IMG/VR virus record: IMGVR_UViG_3300045988_113151
DNA: 64,000 nucleotides
Source: a virus
Direction: 5' to 3' (one strand)
Both the position numbers and the translations under genes were made by a program. The notes under the pieces were generated by a model. The model searched no databases. It worked only from the letters and a program-made list of their open reading frames with translations, and was not told the origin of the DNA. Positions 19,794-36,742 of this stretch are shown here, one piece after another (the first letter of the stretch is position 1; the number at the start of each line of letters is the position of its first letter).

Positions 19794-20351
19794 TTAGTAA
19801 ATATTTGCTATTTTTTGTTTTAATCGTTGTCTTGCTTTATTTAAATCTGATTTAACTTTAGATTCTGGTAAAGCAAATTTTTCAGATATCTCATTATAAG
19901 ATAGACCTTCTATTCGAGCGTTTATTAAATCTCTATATTTCTTTCTAAGTGTTAGAATAGCTTGTTCAACTATTTTTACTTTTTCTTGTAAAACTAATTG
20001 TTCTTCAGGACTTTTTTCGATATTTTCTAATTGAATAGTATTATCTTCATCGTCCATATAGTTATTTAATTGCTCTTTCTTATTTCTTCTTATATAATCT
20101 ATTGAACTGTTAACTGCAATAGTTTTTAACCACATTTCAAATGAAATATGTTGTACATAAGAATCTAATTTTTGATAAGCTTTAGTAAATACTACAGATG
20201 TTAAATCATCTGCTATATCTGTATTCTTTACTATATTATAAATAGTAAACCAAATATTTGATTTATATAATTTATAAAGCTTAGTAAAGGCACTTTCTGA
20301 ACCTTGTTTAGCCTGTTCTACTAAAGTAATTACTTCTTGTGTCATAGGCAT
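19794..20351 (-). CDS. ECF-type sigma-70 family RNA polymerase sigma factor
   Basis: Region 2-like DIADDLTSVVFTKAYQKLDSY...FEMWLKTIAVNSSIDYIRR and a region 4 HTH LSYNEISEKFALPESKVKSDLNKARQRLK. Confidence 0.8.
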   Translation of the reverse strand: MPMTQEVITLVEQAKQGSESAFTKLYKLYKSNIWFTIYNIVKNTDIADDLTSVVFTKAYQKLDSYVQHISFEMWLKTIAVNSSIDYIRRNKKEQLNNYMDDEDNTIQLENIEKSPEEQLVLQEKVKIVEQAILTLRKKYRDLINARIEGLSYNEISEKFALPESKVKSDLNKARQRLKQKIANIY

Positions 20352-21770: not shown

Positions 21771-22052
21771 TTAAAGTTTTTGTACATTAGTACTATTTTT
21801 TTGCTCCTTTCTCTGTTTCATTAGTTTTTTTATTTTACCTAATATATTATCCCAATATTCAAATCCTTCTTTAGTACTACTCCAAGAAAATCCACCACTC
21901 CATGATCCTGCTGTGGGATTTTTTTCAAATACTTGTAAATCAGGTTTATTTCCATGTCTTGCTTGATTCTTAAGCATTTTCTGTTTTATTTCTGGTGGTA
22001 AAGTCTGAATACTATAAAATTCTGTTTTCTTTCTATGTCTTCCTCTATTCAT
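21771..22052 (-). CDS. hypothetical protein
   Basis: The start is moved to MNRGRHRKK (22052) because the longer ORF-track start overlaps the tRNA-like element. Confidence 0.5.
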   Translation of the reverse strand: MNRGRHRKKTEFYSIQTLPPEIKQKMLKNQARHGNKPDLQVFEKNPTAGSWSGGFSWSSTKEGFEYWDNILGKIKKLMKQRKEQKNSTNVQKL

Positions 22053-22067
22053 AATATTAAAGTTTAG

Positions 22068-22141
22068 TTCACGGAGCAGGATTCGAACCTGCACTCATTT
22101 CCCATATCCGTTCTGTGTCTAACCAATTGCACCATCCGTGA
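22068..22141 (-). ncRNA. tRNA-like element without a canonical anticodon stem
   Basis: Minus strand: TCACGGA...GCAGG-TTCGAAT-CCTGC-TCCGTGA-A. It has a 7-bp acceptor stem, a perfect T arm and a D-loop-like AATTGGTTA. The 22 nt where the anticodon arm should be (AGAACGGATATGGGAAATGAGT) cannot form a stem. Confidence 0.45.
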
Positions 22142-22283
22142 CCTGCTTTTTACGACATTAGCTTAGCCGTTGACTTATCGTATTACGCTGCAATACGAGT
22201 ATAGTCTGTTACAAAAGATTTGTCATTTCTGACGTCTATTGACCTATTCATTTTCATCCTCGCTGTCAAATCCATAATACCCC
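22142..22283 (-). ncRNA. ssrA: tmRNA-like coding piece (5' acceptor strand, tag reading frame)
   Basis: Minus strand: GGGGTATTATGGATTTGACAGCGAGG... (compare E. coli GGGGCUGAUUCUGGAUUCGACGGG). AATAGAC-GTC precedes the frame GTC AGA AAT GAC AAA TCT TTT GTA ACA GAC TAT ACT CGT ATT GCA GCG TAA (compare E. coli AAUAGUC-GCA AAC GAC ... GCA GCU UAA). The 3' limit is uncertain. Confidence 0.6.
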
Positions 22284-22382
22284 ATTAGTAGGATTTTCAC
22301 CTACTTTGAAGCTTTGCGACATTTAGTCTAGGAGTGGTTTATACCCTTGCCAAGAGGAATCGAACCTCTATGCTTCTGACCG

Positions 22383-22440
22383 TGGAGTATGAGGGAGTCG
22401 AACCCTCGTCCAAACGATTCATCCAATGACCTAACAGTCA
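22383..22440 (-). ncRNA. ssrA: tmRNA-like acceptor piece (P2 3' strand, T arm, 3' acceptor strand)
   Basis: Minus strand: ...ATCGTTTGGAC-GAGGG-TTCGACT-CCCTC-ATACTCC-A. ATACTCC pairs with GGGGTAT at 22283-22277, including a G3.U70 pair. GGAC precedes the T stem as in E. coli tmRNA (..UUUCGGAC-GCGGG). UCGUU can pair with AGCGA next to the GAC of the coding piece. The 5' limit is uncertain. Confidence 0.55.
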
Positions 22441-22997
22441 ATATAGTAGTATATAGTTAAATCAATAACTATATACTTAAATATGAATAAACTGTAGGTA
22501 AGTATAATAAAAATAATAATCGGAAATATACTTTAAATACAGAGGCAGATAACTTACTATATGTTTAAAGATTTACTTCTATATCTAAGAGTAGCATCAA
22601 CTATTACTTTATTATAGGCTCTAGGCTCGCTTACTCTACAGTTTTAAATAGGCTTTGATTGCATGTATAGTATAGCAAGTGCTCATGTAAAACAGACTCG
22701 ATTGAACTATAGGCATAAAGCTCTCTATACATATACAATTTGATTTTGTGTACTGTTTATCGTCATAAGACTATTCATAGTACAAACTTCGCCAGTTTTA
22801 TACCCTCGTGGCTTATAGCTCTTGAGTTTAGAACGATCTTTAGGCTCATGATCAGTGGCACGTTTTTTACCCAGCAAAATGGGTCAAGCCTCTATTGCTT
22901 GTTGTCAATTCAACTGTGTACAACATCCTGCATCAAAAGACGACTTATCATGTTCTATGTACAGATTTGTCATAAAGACTTCTTCTTGGGTTGTCGA

Positions 22998-23423: not shown

Positions 23424-24000
23424 AATTGTTTGAAATTTTAATTGTTAATAATTGATTTATTTAAGAAATGAATATTAATAGTATATCTCACTAAGTTCAT
23501 TACTGAGTTCTTTATTTTCCTCTGTAAGATATTCAATTTCTACTTGAGATTCTAATATAATTTCTATTAGTTCTTCTTTTGTTTCTGTTTCTAATTCTTC
23601 TTGTGTCCACATAGACTTTTAAATTTAAGAGAGTTATCTGTCTATTCGTACGTCTTATTCAACAGAAGCCCTTTTCCTTCTCCTGACCTATTACTAGGTT
23701 GACCGTTGTATAGTCCGTAGTACTCTATCTGTTAAGATTCCTTTAGGGGTTTGGCTTTATAACTCTCTAGGCTTAACTTCACCATAACTTAATAATTAAG
23801 TTAAAAACAAATTATCTGGCATGATAATATTAGTTGTTATAATAAATATTACTTTATTACTACACGCATGGAGATTTTACCTTCCACGTTTATAAGGCTC
23901 TAATTTCTTATGCCTTATTTTCTTTTTAGATTGATACTCGTAAGCTTTTTCAGATTGCTTAGATCCTGGAAAATGAGATTCCTTGTAAGTCTTTCCCATA

Positions 24001-24381
24001 TTACATATCCATTATATAATACATTTTAGCTGCTAACTCTGGTATATAACTAGCTTTGATATTAGTTAGATAACTAAGATCAGATGTACTAGGTGTCATT
24101 AATATACGCAAAGCTTCTTTGTTATTAGTACTAATAATAGATGCTTTCAAATAGTCTTTAAACTTACTAGAACTTGGATGATATCCGGATTTAGCTTCAA
24201 ATTGTTTAACAAGTTTAACAAATTCAGAATCTTTAGCATTTAATCTTTCTTGAGATGCATCTTCCTCTGACAATAATACAGGTTTAGTATTAAAACCAAT
24301 TTGTTCAGAGAATTTAACCATAGCATTTTTAATACTTGATTCACTTACCTCATTAGGTATGCATATTACGACTACTTTCAT
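24001..24381 (-). CDS. hypothetical protein
   Basis: ORF track. Confidence 0.55.
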   Translation of the reverse strand: MKVVVICIPNEVSESSIKNAMVKFSEQIGFNTKPVLLSEEDASQERLNAKDSEFVKLVKQFEAKSGYHPSSSKFKDYLKASIISTNNKEALRILMTPSTSDLSYLTNIKASYIPELAAKMYYIMDM

Positions 24382-24391
24382 AATTTTGATA

Positions 24392-24652
24392 TTATTTAAT
24401 TTCAGTTAGTTTACTTTTTTTATTTGTATTACGACTGTTAACATCAGCGTATTTATCTCTATTGTGTATTTTACCACAACGAATACAGAAGACTCTATCT
24501 TCTCCATTTTCTGATGGAGAGATTCTAGTACCCCAGATATGACCATATTTAATACAGTCAATTCTTCTTAATTTCTCTATTTCTTCTAGAGTTGTTCTTT
24601 TGCTACACACGTTAGCTAATTTCATAAAGAACTTTGTTAAATATTTTCTCAT
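24392..24652 (-). CDS. hypothetical zinc-ribbon protein
   Basis: CIKYGH ... CIRCGKIH. Confidence 0.5.
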   Translation of the reverse strand: MRKYLTKFFMKLANVCSKRTTLEEIEKLRRIDCIKYGHIWGTRISPSENGEDRVFCIRCGKIHNRDKYADVNSRNTNKKSKLTEIK

Positions 24653-24885
24653 TTACATATAAATTAATAGTTTAAAAGTTAATATTAATGATGGCGTCTC
24701 ATAGTTGCAGCTATGAGATTGTAATCAGTTTAATTGAAAAAGATTTAAAGTTGATACAGTATACTGCAATATACTTACCAGTTCTCCAATAGGATAGCTT
24801 TTGTTAATAGAGCGAACTATTTTACATTTTTGACTCTCACATATTTAAACACATGCAGAAAAGCTGTCAAACCAATCTTACTGTG

Positions 24886-25013
24886 TACATGATTTTAACG
24901 CCCGCACGATCATAAATACATTTAATCAATAGGTTATTTATAATTTGCATACGTATGTCTCACTAATTTTAATCAACTATCATAGTATTTACTTACGCCC
25001 CACATGTTTGTCA
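24886..25013 (-). repeat. bipartite conserved intergenic element, copy 1
   Basis: Plus-strand boxes tacatgattttaacgcccgcac (24886-24907) and gccccacatgtttgtca (24997-25013). The same two boxes occur in the same order at 26927-27020. Confidence 0.7.
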
Positions 25014-25077
25014 TCTTCTGAAGGAGCTATATTCCTGTTTCTCAACTGTAATATAGCAAAGACAATTTTAAAATAAA

Positions 25078-25503
25078 CTAAAATGAAGATTTTAAAGAGT
25101 CGTTCTTTGGTTCAGGTATACTTGGTTTAGGCATACTGTCTGGTAAATATTGTTTTTGCACATCCATAGCATGTTTAATAATCTTATCATAGAACTCTTT
25201 ATTTGTAATATAAGTATTTACAATATCTTGAATAGATATTTGTGTTCCTTTTGTTACAAGTATTTGAGTAACTATTTGAGTAGGCATATCTAAGTATACA
25301 CTATCACAATAGCGATAAAATCTCATTTCTTCTCTTTCTTGCAATACTTCCTTTACAGAAGGAATGTATTCTTGTTCAATAGAATCCGTATCAGGGATAT
25401 CATTGATTGCTTGTGGTTTTTTCACACAGCTTGTTAGTATAGTTATTAACATAACTATTGCTAAAATAGCAAATAATTTTAAAGATTTAAATTTTTCTTT
25501 CAT
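25078..25503 (-). CDS. lipoprotein (TAG stop)
   Basis: Signal peptide with lipobox MKEKFKSLKLFAILAIVMLITILTSC. Confidence 0.65.
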   Translation of the reverse strand: MKEKFKSLKLFAILAIVMLITILTSCVKKPQAINDIPDTDSIEQEYIPSVKEVLQEREEMRFYRYCDSVYLDMPTQIVTQILVTKGTQISIQDIVNTYITNKEFYDKIIKHAMDVQKQYLPDSMPKPSIPEPKNDSLKSSF

Positions 25504-25527
25504 TTTTGATAATGTTTTTAATTAATT

Positions 25528-25719
25528 TTACTGTAACATTGAATAGATTTCAGCAGCACTTTCTTTAACTTCTGCTATAACTACTTCTTCTTCGCCTAAA
25601 TTAGTATAAATATAAGTACAGTCTTCTCCATCACAAATAGATGAAATTATTTCTGTATTTATTACTGTATTACCTAGCGTTTCTGGATCAGCGTTAGTTA
25701 ATAATATAAATTTCTTCAT
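25528..25719 (-). CDS. hypothetical protein
   Basis: ORF track. Confidence 0.45.
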   Translation of the reverse strand: MKKFILLTNADPETLGNTVINTEIISSICDGEDCTYIYTNLGEEEVVIAEVKESAAEIYSMLQ

Positions 25720-25836
25720 TGTGGTATAATATTATAAATTATTACTAATAGTGATACTAATATATATAAACTAATCATAATAGTTTTATGATTGTCTATA
25801 AATTGTAACATTTTATCTAATAAGATGTCACAAATA

Positions 25837-26112
25837 TCAGGGTTTGAATCTGTCTTCATACTTCTCACTGTTTTTATTATCTAAATTGTGATTAGCAGAA
25901 GCTCCTAGTTCGTATATAAATCTAATTACGCAGAATATGCATAACGTGATTATAATAACACACCACCATTTGTAATAGTCATATAGACTACCATGCTTTA
26001 GCTCAAAGGCTAAACTTTCATCTAAAACTGCATCAATATTAGCTTTTAACCATAGTGTTACTATAGTAAGAGCTACTATAAATCCAGCTAAAAAATTGAT
26101 TAAACTTTTCAT
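25837..26112 (-). CDS. hypothetical membrane protein
   Basis: Two hydrophobic helices (FLAGFIVALTIVTLWL, WWCVIIITLCIFCVIRFI). Confidence 0.5.
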   Translation of the reverse strand: MKSLINFLAGFIVALTIVTLWLKANIDAVLDESLAFELKHGSLYDYYKWWCVIIITLCIFCVIRFIYELGASANHNLDNKNSEKYEDRFKP

Positions 26113-26333
26113 TCTTTAATTTGATTTAATAGTTGATTACTAGAATTCTTCCAATTAGAAAGTAATTCATTAAATTTATCTCTTAATTCTAACAATTGTT
26201 CTTTCTCTTCATCTGTTATACATTTATAATCAGATTCAAGAGTAATAAGTAAAGAAGATAGATTACATTTTAGACCAAATAATCTAAAATAAGTAAAATT
26301 CCTATACCTATTTAGCTTTGATTTCTTGTTCAT
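26109..26333 (-). CDS. hypothetical protein
   Basis: ORF track; it has a 4-nt overlap with the upstream gene. Confidence 0.45.
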   Translation of the reverse strand: MNKKSKLNRYRNFTYFRLFGLKCNLSSLLITLESDYKCITDEEKEQLLELRDKFNELLSNWKNSSNQLLNQIKE

Positions 26334-26640
26334 ACTTTGCTATTTTATTATAAATTATATTCCAATAGTGAATACCTTTTATTGAATCTTTCCAAGAAAA
26401 AGTAGTTATTATATAAAATATTACATAATTACTTCTTTTTTTATATAGGTTGAGACCTCTATAATTATAATTACGAAAACTCATATTATAATGTATTACT
26501 TCGGAAACAAATTCACTCAAACAATTAAAATGAATTAAAGCGTGTAACAAGTTATATGACATGTTTGTCATAATGTGATGTCTCATATCCTGCTTAATTC
26601 GTTTTAAATCTTTGTCTGTATAATCTACAATATTTTCCAT
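26308..26640 (-). CDS. hypothetical protein (TAG stop)
   Basis: ORF track. Confidence 0.5.
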   Translation of the reverse strand: MENIVDYTDKDLKRIKQDMRHHIMTNMSYNLLHALIHFNCLSEFVSEVIHYNMSFRNYNYRGLNLYKKRSNYVIFYIITTFSWKDSIKGIHYWNIIYNKIAKYEQEIKAK

Positions 26641-26926
26641 AATTACTTTTTAATAAGGAATACTAAGTTTTGATTTGTACAAATAGCAAGATGTGAATAC
26701 TTTCTAATAAATTTCTTTTTCATATTGATTATGTTTTAATGGTTAGTAAATTCTAATAAAATGAAGATTGCTACTTTCACAAGCAACAACCTTCTATAAA
26801 CCAAATTTTAATAAAGAGAATGGCAAATGTAACTAACATCTGAGGACTAGGATACGCTAATCCCTATAAATGATGCAATTAAAAATAGCGAAGAGTTACT
26901 AACGTAGTACAATATAGTTTGCATCA

Positions 26927-27020
26927 TACATGATTTTAAAGTCTGCACTAATGCTAGTTCAAGTGAGCTGTATAAATCAATATACATTTCAGACTAGACA
27001 TAAGCCCCACATGTTTGTCA
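26927..27020 (-). repeat. bipartite conserved intergenic element, copy 2
   Basis: Boxes tacatgattttaaagtctgcac (26927-26948) and gccccacatgtttgtca (27004-27020). Confidence 0.7.
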
Positions 27021-27047
27021 AGGATTCTCACCTTAATAACTTATAGT

Positions 27048-27170
27048 TTAATTACCATTAATAATGTAGAAGATATAACCTACAGCAAATAATGCTATAA
27101 GAACATAAATAATTGCAACTCCTACAAATGCAATTATTCTTTCAAATAAATCGTCATCGTCTTTTTTCAT
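27048..27170 (-). CDS. small single-pass membrane protein (40 aa)
   Basis: Manual translation MKKDDDDLFERIIAFVGVAIIYVLIALFAVGYIFYIINGN. Confidence 0.4.
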   Translation of the reverse strand: MKKDDDDLFERIIAFVGVAIIYVLIALFAVGYIFYIINGN

Positions 27171-28117
27171 AATTTAATAATTTTATAAATTTGCATTTTA
27201 CACCTAAAACTTATAAGGGTAATAGGACTCGAAATTAATCTATCCTAAAACTTTATTTATTACCTACTAAAAGAAGTAGAACTTATAAGAAACTGGTGTC
27301 CTCAATGTCTTGGAAGGTTATTGAGTTTTTTAAATATCTGTCTTTCCAGATCGCCAATATTAGTTTATACTCCTAATATTAGAGTTTACTATCTTTAATA
27401 CCTAGAATAAGATAGCAGATTGTTTAAAAGAATAGTATAATCTTCCAAAACTATACTATTCTTTTGTATTATCAACACTCACTATTACACACAGTAGCTA
27501 ATTGTGTTTATTTAGTGACTAGATTCATAGTGGAAATGATTCCTTATGAGAATCCTACTTACTAGCTAGACTCTTGCGCTCGATATTGACGTTGTGGCAA
27601 TCAACAACAATATTTTTCACAATCGAGGGTCTTATTTCTCGGCAACTCCTACTTAATTTAAATTTGAATATATTTATATATCCCAAGTAATCAACAGATA
27701 TTTGGAGCACTATTTTACATCATTGTTTTCACGCTGATTGCTCGTTTTTGATCTTTTAATCAATATATACTTGATCAGTATGTATATATCTATGCTTCTT
27801 ACTTTCTGAGCGAGTTTGCGATTCTCAGATTTCATATTTTCTATTACCACGCATTGGCTAATTAGAAGAGCCTTAATTAAATTAAAATAACATAACTTGC
27901 ACAGTTTGTTTAGTTATGACTAACCAGCCTGTGACTAACTTCTGGTTAGTCTTAATTTAATTACTAGTCTTTACAGCGCTAGCTCTCTGTTTAGTTATTA
28001 TAAAGATAATTAAATTAGAAAAAATTGCTATAATGATGACTCAATTGTAGTGATATGCAGAAGCGATGGACACTTTCATGTCCACGCTCTGATTGACGAA
28101 TAAGCTATATATTAGTA
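27171..28117. other. about 0.95-kb ORF-free, hairpin-dense island
   Basis: No ORF of 60 aa or more. Perfect 10-bp stem gactaaccag/ctggttagtc, 9-bp aatagtata/tatactatt, a gcgtggaca..tgtccatcgc hairpin right after the stop of 28118-28798, and the motif gcgagtttgcga shared with 16551. Confidence 0.45.
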
Positions 28118-36635: not shown

Positions 36636-36707
36636 TCTCCTGTGATGTAAAGGTAACATATTGAGCTCTAACCTCAAAATTGTCCGTTCGAGTCGAGACC
36701 AGGAGGA
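36636..36707 (+). tRNA. amber suppressor tRNA (anticodon CUA), probably Gln-type
   Basis: TCTCCTG-TG-ATGT-AAAGGTA-ACAT-A-TTGAG-CTCTAAC-CTCAA-AATT-GTCCG-TTCGAGT-CG(A)GAC-CAGGAGG-A. The anticodon CTA is at 36668-36670. There is a U1.G72 wobble and a one-nt bulge in the T stem. U1 and the GGTAA D-loop resemble tRNA-Gln. Confidence 0.75.
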
Positions 36708-36742
36708 CTAATAAAAAATAATTTAATGTTACTATCACAAAT

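Follow-up and report, generated by a model that had tools for sequence, protein, structure and literature searches.

Does a stretch of viral DNA of 64,000 nucleotides (IMG/VR record IMGVR_UViG_3300045988_113151; "the window" means this whole stretch) encode its own transfer-messenger RNA (tmRNA), and would that RNA work? A preliminary description, made from the sequence alone, had placed a circularly permuted, two-piece tmRNA gene on the minus strand at 22142-22440, with a tag reading frame ending in IAA. We are confident, short of certainty, that the locus is a functional, circularly permuted ssrA gene of a Suoliviridae-type crAss-like phage, that it derives from the one-piece tmRNA of Bacteroidales, and that its RNA is about 205 nt long and free of pseudoknots.

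Identification of the gene

Direct reading of positions 21900-22700 placed all of the sequence features named in the preliminary description on the minus strand where it had put them. Two detectors, run blind on the whole window, agreed on the permuted gene. ARAGORN called a permuted tmRNA (tmRNA*) at 22092-22472 on the minus strand, with the tag VRNDKSFVTDYTRIAA, which is exactly the tag that had been predicted. When we compared the window to all 4227 families of Rfam 15, the permuted tmRNA model (RF04321, tmRNA_permuted) matched 22183-22442 on the minus strand across its full length (model positions 1-213 of 213; E = 1.7e-06). The score of 48.5 bits lies just above the gathering score of 47 and not at background, and the agreement of the detectors with the prediction goes far beyond chance. 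The acceptor piece lies upstream of the spacer and the coding piece, which is the order that had been proposed.

RF04321 merges the earlier models for the alpha, beta, and cyano two-piece lineages (RF01849, RF01850, and RF01851). Membership in any of these lineages can be rejected: beta_tmRNA scored 21.9 bits (gathering score, 84) in a match limited to the tRNA-like domain, while the alpha and cyano models gave no match in the window at E <= 10.

Using blastn against a phage collection, we found homologs only in Suoliviridae crAss-like phages and in two unclassified human faecal phage contigs. Several of these genes are annotated as "transfer-messenger RNA, SsrA": those of cr114_1 (NC_055897.1), cr125_1, cr60_1, cr52_1, cr10_1 (NC_055875.1/MT774382.1), and cr50_1. 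Identity to the annotated features is 77-89% (blastn, two pieces), and both detectors confirm permuted tmRNAs at the annotated loci, with the tags GNFYVTDYTRIAA, GNTSYVMDYTRLAA, GNTSYVTDYTRLVA, GNNFVTDYTQLAVA, and GNNFVTDYTAIGA. The annotated genes and the gene in the window have in common the permuted order, the P2 architecture, a ...VTDYTR(I/L)(A/V)A tag core, the tail hairpin, and a tRNA-like unit downstream, and they have RAGATH RNAs and a phage sigma factor as neighbors. More broadly, a scan for a 19-nt motif from the tail found at least 120 IMG/VR contigs, most of them 50-100 kb long, and the gene is spread over at least four subfamilies of Suoliviridae. The window phage itself has no close genome-level relative in the phage collection and is therefore a new genome that carries a known gene family.

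The preliminary description had left open that such a gene might be undescribed in crAss-like phages. This does not hold: besides the GenBank and RefSeq records of Suoliviridae, Table S1 of Buchholz et al. 2022 (PMC9004378) gives at least 10 crAssphage genomes as "Permuted." The 2025 tmRNA database paper (PMC11915505) processed RefSeq viruses and reports 79 phage sequences, with crAss-like phages unmentioned. Our full-text literature searches found no paper that analyses the tmRNA of crAss-like phages, only annotation pipelines, the database paper, and the one supplementary table. Thus, the gene family is known and annotated, and the gene in the window is a further member, to be labelled ssrA (permuted) like its relatives. 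What appear to be undescribed in the literature we searched are the pseudoknot-free architecture, the ancestry in one-piece Bacteroidales tmRNA, the punctuation by tRNA-like units, the variable cargo of the spacer, and the permuted-plus-intron form of the cr6_1 type.

The two pieces pair as a tRNA-like domain and a long P2

The sequence has the parts expected of a tmRNA: an acceptor stem with G3.U70 and A73, a T arm, helix P2, a tag frame, and a stop codon inside helix 5 (Table 1). The 5' end of the coding piece, GGGGTAT, pairs with ATACTCC to form a 7-bp acceptor stem with the alanine identity pair G3.U70. ATACTCC had been described as the sole possible partner. Within 500 nt on either side, it is the only one with Watson-Crick pairing apart from the G3.U70 wobble; the other candidate, ATATTTC at 22529, requires several G-U pairs and has no adjoining T arm. 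The perfect T arm preceded by GGAC is also where it had been described.

Two features needed correction. First, the acceptor piece does not start at 22440: it begins at 22442 or farther upstream, with ATTGAC. Second, the P2-like helix is real, but its extent had been understated. It comprises three segments: ATTGAC/GTCAAT; TCATT/AATGA, which alternates with TCTAT/ATAGA; and TCG-T-TTG/CAGCGA, whose variants in homologs include TTG/CAA and GTTGT/GCAAC.

We parsed 128 segments extracted from related loci, of which 121 were untruncated. In 83 of the 121, a perfect 5-bp T arm is followed by the 7-nt complement of the 5' end of the coding piece and then by A; these comprise 65 unique sequences. They show 18 T-arm haplotypes and eight acceptor stem haplotypes (GGGGCAT/ATGCTCC, GGGGCTG/CAGCTCC, GGGGTAT/ATACTCC, GGGTGTG/CACATCC, GGGGATG/CATCTCC, GGGGCTA/TAGCTCC, GGGCGTG/CACGTCC, and GGGCCTA/TAGGTCC). 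G3.U70 and A73 are present in all 65, the base after A73 is always C, and CCA is never encoded.

We aligned 26 diverse sequences with MAFFT. Of the cells for the acceptor stem, T arm, and P2, 97.0% are paired; both sides have changed in 20 of the 30 pairs, among them 12 of 18 pairs in P2 (compensated) and 4 of 5 pairs in the T arm. The covariation test that had been proposed for related phages thus came out in favor of all three helices. The covariation score was 0.436, as compared to 0.117 for shuffled alignments (0 of 500 reached the observed score) and 0.04-0.12 for controls with a slid register. The proposed G3.U70 pair is found in all 26 aligned homologs.

All five helices have compensatory changes, and the identity elements are invariant. 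This pattern of conservation indicates purifying selection on an RNA that is both folded and translated, as judged by comparing sequences. It also bears on whether the gene works at all. The locus might instead be the decaying remains of a tmRNA or tRNA-Ala captured from a host, or else a software false positive beside a tRNA-like sequence: ARAGORN's permuted calls in phages are not always reliable, the call in the window runs into the adjoining tRNA-like element (to 22092), and the Rfam score is marginal. We give this explanation almost no credence, as the covariation result already contradicts it, and the gene is conserved in at least 120 contigs and at least four subfamilies with five compensated helices and invariant identity elements.

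Some related loci depart from the usual T arm. In eight of them (L014, L058, L064, L081, L083, L089, L112, and L120), the loop is not of the tRNA-like form TTCGAnT, and the arm reads CGCGG-GGCAGTA/G-CCGCG. Their acceptor stem is mostly GGGTGTG/CACATCC (GGGGATG/CATCTCC in L083 and L112), with G3.U70 kept in all of them. These loci are mostly missed by ARAGORN.

Table 1. Positions of features at and near the tmRNA gene of the window
Feature	Position	Strand	Evidence or remarks
Acceptor piece, 3' half of tRNA-like domain	22383..22442	-	Direct reading, ARAGORN, Rfam, covariation
P2, 3' strand	22442-22411: ATTGAC 22442-22437, TCATT 22429-22425, TCG-T-TTG 22417-22411	-	
GAC before T arm	22410-22408	-	
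T arm, GAGGG-TTCGACT-CCCTC	22407-22391	-	GGAC directly 5'
Acceptor stem, 3' strand ATACTCC	22390-22384	-	
Discriminator A73	22383	-	
Intervening segment (spacer)	22284..22382	-	99-nt conserved structured element, begins CGGTCAGAAGCATAGAGGTTCGAYTCCTCTTGGCAAGGGTATAAACC
Coding piece	22142..22283	-	Begins GGGGTATTATGGATTTGACAGCG at 22283
Acceptor stem, 5' strand GGGGTAT	22283-22277	-	
D-loop analogue TATGGATTTGA	Inside coding piece	-	
P2, 5' strand	CAGCGA 22265-22260, AATGA 22252-22248, GTCAAT 22243-22238	-	Then 4-nt linker
Tag reading frame	22183..22233, GTC 22233-22231 to TAA 22185-22183	-	ARAGORN, homologs
Helix 5 analogue	22172..22206	-	Covariation, fold
3' tail hairpin, ACGGC-UAAGCUAAU-GUCGU	22152..22170	-	Invariant in collected homologs, for which it was the search pattern
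Tail AAAAAGCAGG	End of coding piece	-	
tRNA-like element	22068..22141	-	Adjoins coding-piece 3' end; Rfam tRNA 36 bits, gathering score 29
Perfect 12-bp hairpin, AGTATATAGTTA-TTGATT-TAACTATATACT	22448..22477	-	z = -5.5; ends 5 nt upstream of acceptor piece
RAGATH-9	23627-23780	-	129 bits
Hatchet ribozymes (two)	24887-25025 and 26928-27040	-	86 and 89 bits
RAGATH-14	27414-27650	-	169 bits

The tag peptide and helix 5

The predicted tag frame, GTC AGA AAT...GCA GCG TAA, encodes (A)VRNDKSFVTDYTRIAA and a stop codon, and its IAA end is matched by the identical tag that ARAGORN derived independently. GTC is the resume codon chosen by ARAGORN. The resume context is UUAAUU|GGC in the host and AUAACU|GGC in the main phage family, and the GUC of the window keeps the UA at positions -5 and -4, as in the host. 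Compared to that main family of Suoliviridae, the window has a second family of tags (VRNDKSF...) and the putative resume codon GUC instead of GGC.

The tag shows selection as a peptide. Within the V-(T/M)-D-Y-T core, variation falls mainly at third codon positions (GTA/GTG/GTT, GAC/GAT, TAT/TAC, ACA/ACT). Across D-Y-T, the first codon positions have entropies of 0.37/0/0.16, the second 0/0/0.37, and the third 0.69/0.78/1.12. Such a concentration at third positions is a signature of selection on the peptide and argues against a pure decoy or relic. The conserved VTDYTR core suggests that tagged proteins are sent to a fate unlike that of proteins carrying the host's GENNYALAA tag. Among 92 distinct homologs, the tag frame ends in TGA in 54, in TAA in 38, and in TAG in none.

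The last third of the tag frame lies in a two-tier hairpin. The outer pairs join GACU (22206-22203) to AGUC (22175-22172), and the inner hairpin is UCGUAUUGC-AGC-GUAAUACGA (22198-22178), with the UAA stop codon within its 3' strand. Both tiers covary in homologs (GACU/AGUC, GAUUA/UAAUC, AACU/AGUU), and the stop codon is base-paired in 34 of 41 sequence variants. Ordinary tmRNA has this arrangement in its helix 5.

The stop codon is followed by about 41 nt before the tRNA-like element begins, close to the 40 nt that had been estimated. Because the tail hairpin in this segment was the pattern used to search for homologs, its invariance carries no weight. The tail resembles UAAGCAUGUAGAAAGC of the host tmRNA at a colinear position (host nt ~332-352 in nearly all comparisons), and this similarity is weak (z = 1.7-3.3), so homology of the tail is suggestive only.

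Evidence against a working tmRNA

Several observations weigh against the conclusion that this is a working tmRNA. The acceptor stem and T-arm statistics come from sequences that were pre-selected for perfect pairing in those helices. As the pairing there is partly circular and P2 lies outside the selection, P2 is the stronger test. The margin over the gathering score of RF04321 is just 1.5 bits, and some homologs fall under the cut-off, at 40-44 bits. CCA is not encoded, and A73 is followed by CGG. GUC is unusual as a resume codon, and close relatives have 1-nt indels just 5' of CGTCAGAAAT, which makes the exact resume codon uncertain in the tag family of the window. Also, a tblastn search of the 64-kb window, with an unverified E. 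coli SmpB sequence as the query, found no SmpB, only noise (E >= 2).

The largest departure is that pseudoknots (PK) PK1 to PK4 are all absent. The preliminary description had recognized a minimal tmRNA without PK2-4, which stands, and had not mentioned that PK1 is missing too. PK1 is the most conserved pseudoknot of tmRNA. There are just 4 nt from P2 to the resume codon and 41 nt after the stop codon, with one simple hairpin, so there is no room for pseudoknots. PK2, which is missing here, helps to anchor tmRNA close to the mRNA channel's entrance (PMC8012679). Reduced tmRNAs do exist, so the loss of pseudoknots bears on the subtype and not on whether the RNA is a tmRNA. It is speculation that CUAA, in the loop of the tail hairpin, might pair with UUAG in the internal loop of P2; both sides are invariant and thus show no covariation.

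Could such an RNA serve to inhibit the host's trans-translation? A decoy might soak up SmpB, alanyl-tRNA synthetase (AlaRS), or EF-Tu, or enter ribosomes unproductively, without making a useful tag. The tRNA-like domain is almost identical to the host's, and all pseudoknots have been lost; the loss of pseudoknots lowers tmRNA activity in E. coli, as is known for PK1. There may also be a precedent: as mentioned in PMC11915505, a tmRNA-like RNA of mycobacteriophage DS6A that has no coding sequence reportedly inhibits the cell's own tmRNA in E. coli. However, a decoy would have no need for the third-position pattern in the tag, nor for the conserved tag frame, resume context, in-frame stop codon, and helix 5. 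We therefore consider a decoy very unlikely. A working minimal trans-translation RNA that depends on host factors is the best-supported explanation, and the host-like tRNA-like domain fits with use of the host's SmpB, AlaRS, and EF-Tu, to judge by the resemblance.

If the RNA is active, then it would have the smallest natural architecture of a tmRNA that encodes a tag, and trans-translation would be possible without any pseudoknot. That a very abundant group of phages of the human gut keeps a tmRNA of only a tRNA-like domain, P2, a tag, and helix 5 bears on which parts of tmRNA are essential.

Origin from a one-piece Bacteroidales tmRNA

Both ends of the phage RNA resemble the tmRNA of Bacteroidales. 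The acceptor piece is identical to nt ~364-396 of a Bacteroidales tmRNA, from a Paraprevotella metagenome-assembled genome, at 29 of 33 positions, and the acceptor piece of cr10_1 matches a Paraprevotella metagenome-assembled genome at 35 of 38. Nucleotides 1-32 of the coding piece align with nt 1-31 of the Segatella copri tmRNA, with 28 identities in 33 aligned columns. ARAGORN identifies standard one-piece tmRNAs of ~397 nt in Prevotella, Segatella copri, Paraprevotella, Parabacteroides, Muribaculaceae, and others. A degenerate pattern for their tag, GENNYALAA, matches only Bacteroidota genomes, except for one record titled Paratractidigestivibacter. These alignments show the phage RNA to be the two ends of a Bacteroidales tmRNA that has lost its pseudoknot-rich body, with a tag of its own. 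The tRNA-like domain, being of Prevotellaceae type, may also hint at the hosts of uncultured Suoliviridae.

Host and phage RNAs also share features around the tag. The resume context ..UAAnU|GGC is common to the host and most phage copies, as is a tag that starts with G-(E/N)-N and ends with a hydrophobic residue followed by Ala-Ala. In contrast, the Bacteroidales tmRNA is unpermuted and has a full pseudoknot-rich body, the phage RNA is ~190 nt shorter, and the phage tag has an extra conserved core, VTDYTR, that GENNYALAA lacks.

Because the donor lineage has the standard order while the phage gene is permuted, a separate permutation event would be required. We did not find a one-piece, host-like intermediate in crAss-like RefSeq genomes: with the S. 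copri tmRNA as the query, the matches in cr10_1 and cr50_1 were confined to the 3' 30 nt, and the other matches were two short, unverified, bacterial-looking contigs.

Three bacterial lineages of two-piece tmRNA are given in the literature (PMC11915505, PMC9004378), so the phage gene appears to record one more independent origin of the two-piece form. The bacterial two-piece tmRNAs, which occur in Alphaproteobacteria, some Betaproteobacteria, and some Cyanobacteria (Keiler et al. 2000; Sharkady and Williams 2004), have the same gene order as the window. As in the phage form, their pieces are joined by the acceptor stem and P2, and their ends are made by tRNA-processing enzymes. Bacterial two-piece tmRNAs retain PK1. 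The phage sequence differs in that it descends from a one-piece Bacteroidales tmRNA and has no pseudoknot at all.

Phage-borne ssrA genes are also known elsewhere: the OM43 phage Melnitz and pelagimyophages have two-piece genes, and mycobacteriophages and large phages have one-piece tmRNAs. Like the gene of the window, these are phage-borne copies without smpB in the part examined here, and they presumably act with host factors (PMC9004378). Genes of the Melnitz type differ in that their hosts already have two-piece tmRNAs and in that they carry a glutamine riboswitch, whereas the crAss-like gene has its source in a one-piece host lineage, has tRNA-like units on its borders, and is much smaller.

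A broader proposal, on which our judgment is evenly balanced, is that the tmRNA of crAss-like phages is an independently evolved, pseudoknot-free, minimal two-piece tmRNA of ~205 nt, permuted from the one-piece Bacteroidales tmRNA apart from the alpha, beta, and cyano events. In this proposal, tRNA-like units define its ends, the spacer serves as a landing site where tRNA genes, structured elements, and homing-endonuclease open reading frames (ORFs) settle, and the cr6_1 type adds a group I intron in the T loop.

The spacer and other insertions

The spacer of the window is 85% identical to those of cr10_1 and cr50_1, despite the divergence of the remaining gene; the window thus has a spacer of the cr10_1/cr50_1 type, yet its coding piece is closest to that of cr6_1. 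The consensus fold of the spacer is multi-branched and is closed by GAAGC/GCUUC, with a T-arm-like hairpin (AGAGG-TTCGATT-CCTCT) inside, followed by a terminal hairpin. The terminal hairpin covaries, and a single-sequence fold gave z = -2.3. The element is present in eight IMG/VR contigs (L130-L137), as well as in L003 and L007. Two of these contigs, L130 and L135, have the element (or its first 40 nt) 3' of a tRNA-Val(cac), which takes the place of a tmRNA piece, and 5' of another tRNA-like unit. The 99-nt element thus behaves as a portable spacer between tRNA-type genes.

We also considered whether the spacer might be something already known. A known RNA family is unsupported, as Rfam gave no match at E <= 10 beyond spurious plastid motifs. 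A true tRNA is also unsupported: ARAGORN called nothing, and the 5' acceptor strand that the T-arm-like half would require, CTTGCCA, is absent nearby.

In other phages, the spacers are unrelated and 15-193 nt long, and some contain a homing-endonuclease-like ORF. In cr114_1 (L001; 1570-1642), and also in L116, a complete tRNA-His(gtg) gene lies between the acceptor and coding pieces. With this arrangement, one precursor would give a tRNA plus both pieces of the tmRNA. In six other loci (L012, L028, L039, L048, L080, and L123), the spacer is ~0.6 kb and the acceptor piece is intact. L012 has a variant T loop (GGGGC-TATCGTA-TGCCCC, shown for this locus only), and its spacer looks like an opposite-strand ORF.

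In another group of loci, the acceptor piece is split within the T loop by an insertion of 0.6-0.9 kb: cr6_1 (L002; NC_055894.1, 383-1310), L011, L032, L049, L052, L074, and L091. The insertion in cr6_1 begins with a group I intron (Rfam Intron_gpI at 412-671, 96.7 bits, E = 1.6e-25) that starts inside the T arm, and it has an "endonuclease" ORF on the opposite strand. The 5' exon ends in ...GGACACGGGTT, and the 3' exon resumes with CGACTCCCGTATGCTCCA. The spacers of ~0.6 kb would be a second way for mobile DNA to occupy a tmRNA gene. The tmRNA of cr6_1 is unannotated in RefSeq, and the table of gene forms in the 2025 tmRNA database paper (PMC11915505) has none that is both permuted and split by an intron. 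In the window, the T arm is uninterrupted.

How the RNA may be processed

How could a gene in this order give a chargeable RNA? A permuted gene needs a free, CCA-tailed 3' end after A73 for charging, so the mature RNA must be two pieces, and the spacer must be removed, as the RNA would otherwise not be chargeable. We propose that minus-strand transcription of the early/middle block, which uses the standard code, gives a single precursor and that the tRNA-like domain folds across the spacer. RNase P would cleave 5' of G1 (22283). A tRNA 3'-end nuclease would trim after A73 (22383), and the host's CCA-adding enzyme would append CCA. RNase P probably also cleaves at 22141/22142, 5' of the downstream tRNA-like unit, which would give the 3' end of the coding piece. 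The resulting pieces of ~63 nt and ~142 nt would be held together by the acceptor stem and the three-segment P2.

The tRNA-like element downstream of the coding piece has an intact 7-bp acceptor stem (TCACGGA/TCCGTGA) and an intact T arm, but the D and anticodon region is degenerate, with no convincing anticodon arm. ARAGORN's tmRNA* call extends into it, and ARAGORN called no tRNA at 22068-22141. The homologs that we examined have a tRNA or a tRNA-like unit at the same position, and some of these are bare acceptor/T minihelices. ARAGORN calls a tRNA there in 15 of the 128 segments (tRNA-Ile(gat) in nine, Leu(taa), and odd ones). This comparison suggests that a tRNA gene has decayed into a pure processing signal, which would serve RNase P in setting the 3' end of the coding piece.

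On the other side of the gene, about half of 51 distinct loci have, 3-5 nt upstream of ATTGAC, a covarying hairpin of 10-12 bp that is equivalent to the perfect 12-bp hairpin of the window. Its loop is TTTGGTCG, TTTGATCG, or TTGATT, and the stem sequences differ completely among phages. At many loci, AAGACCAnAG 5' of the hairpin can pair with the loop to form an H-type pseudoknot. This hairpin could form the 5' end of the acceptor piece once mature, or it could signal processing or termination. A scan for promoters and terminators near the gene, which did not cover Bacteroidales or phage promoters, found six promoter-like sites, as compared to 6.8 expected, and no terminators.

Function and stop codon recoding

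Once assembled, the RNA would be charged with alanine by the host's AlaRS, via G3.U70 and A73, and the host's SmpB and EF-Tu would bring it to ribosomes stalled at the 3' ends of mRNAs. Translation would resume at or near GUC, add (A)VRNDKSFVTDYTRIAA, and stop at the UAA in helix 5. Ribosomes would thereby be freed during infection, and truncated products would be given a phage-specific tag. The benefit to the phage could be that ribosomes are kept available during mRNA degradation or read-through, or that truncated products are steered via the VTDYTR core.

The preliminary description had suggested another purpose, the rescue of ribosomes at unsuppressed TAG codons. The late genes on the plus strand, from ~36.7 to 64 kb, are open only if TAG is a sense codon: late ORFs of 1068, 836, 1074, and 1544 amino acids have 9-14 in-frame TAGs. 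A tRNA(CUA) lies at the start of the late block (36636-36708, plus strand; labelled "tRNA-Pyl" by ARAGORN). The tmRNA lies in the minus-strand block at 1-29 kb, where the code is the standard one.

Might the tmRNA be specialised for the code switch, either for rescue at unsuppressed TAG or for clearing the non-stop complexes that arise when the suppressor reads through TAG-ended host or early mRNAs? The window does recode TAG in its late block and does have tRNA(CUA), and TAG ends none of the 92 distinct tag frames. For crAss-like phages, it has been proposed that a suppressor drives read-through of host genes (bioRxiv 10.1101/2020.07.20.212944), and in E. coli with RF1 deleted, tmRNA is known to resolve ribosomes at unassigned UAG codons (PMC6207430). 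However, where RF1 is present, the established mechanism is that a ribosome at TAG terminates and does not stall. The targets of tmRNA are ribosomes at the 3' ends of mRNAs whose A site is empty, not ribosomes at stop codons that RF1 can read.

Furthermore, cr10_1 retains a homologous tmRNA with the standard code and no suppressor tRNA: its TerL, portal, major capsid protein, and giant virion proteins have no in-frame TAG or TGA, and it uses TAG as a real stop codon. Rescue at TAG is therefore not supported as a general explanation, and an obligatory link between the tmRNA and TAG recoding can be rejected. Because cr10_1 keeps the gene under the standard code, the tmRNA is not an accessory of recoding, and we consider a specialisation for the code switch unlikely. 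Extra capacity for rescue by a working tmRNA could still be especially useful when an amber suppressor drives read-through.

Genomic neighborhood

A Pfam scan of ten neighboring ORFs for translation-related proteins found only a sigma factor of the extracytoplasmic function (ECF) type. This gene (19794-20351) shares the minus strand with the tmRNA, 1.8 kb downstream of it, and has the domains Sigma70_r2 (E = 3e-12) and Sigma70_r4_2 (E = 6e-10). Its placement matches that of the "RNA polymerase sigma-W factor" genes beside the tmRNA in cr60_1 and cr52_1.

Just upstream of the tmRNA, on the same strand, is an island of structured RNAs (23627-27650, minus strand; Table 1) with small ORFs in between. 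In related loci, RAGATH-9, -20, and -22 and RAGATH-7-assoc lie beside the tmRNA.

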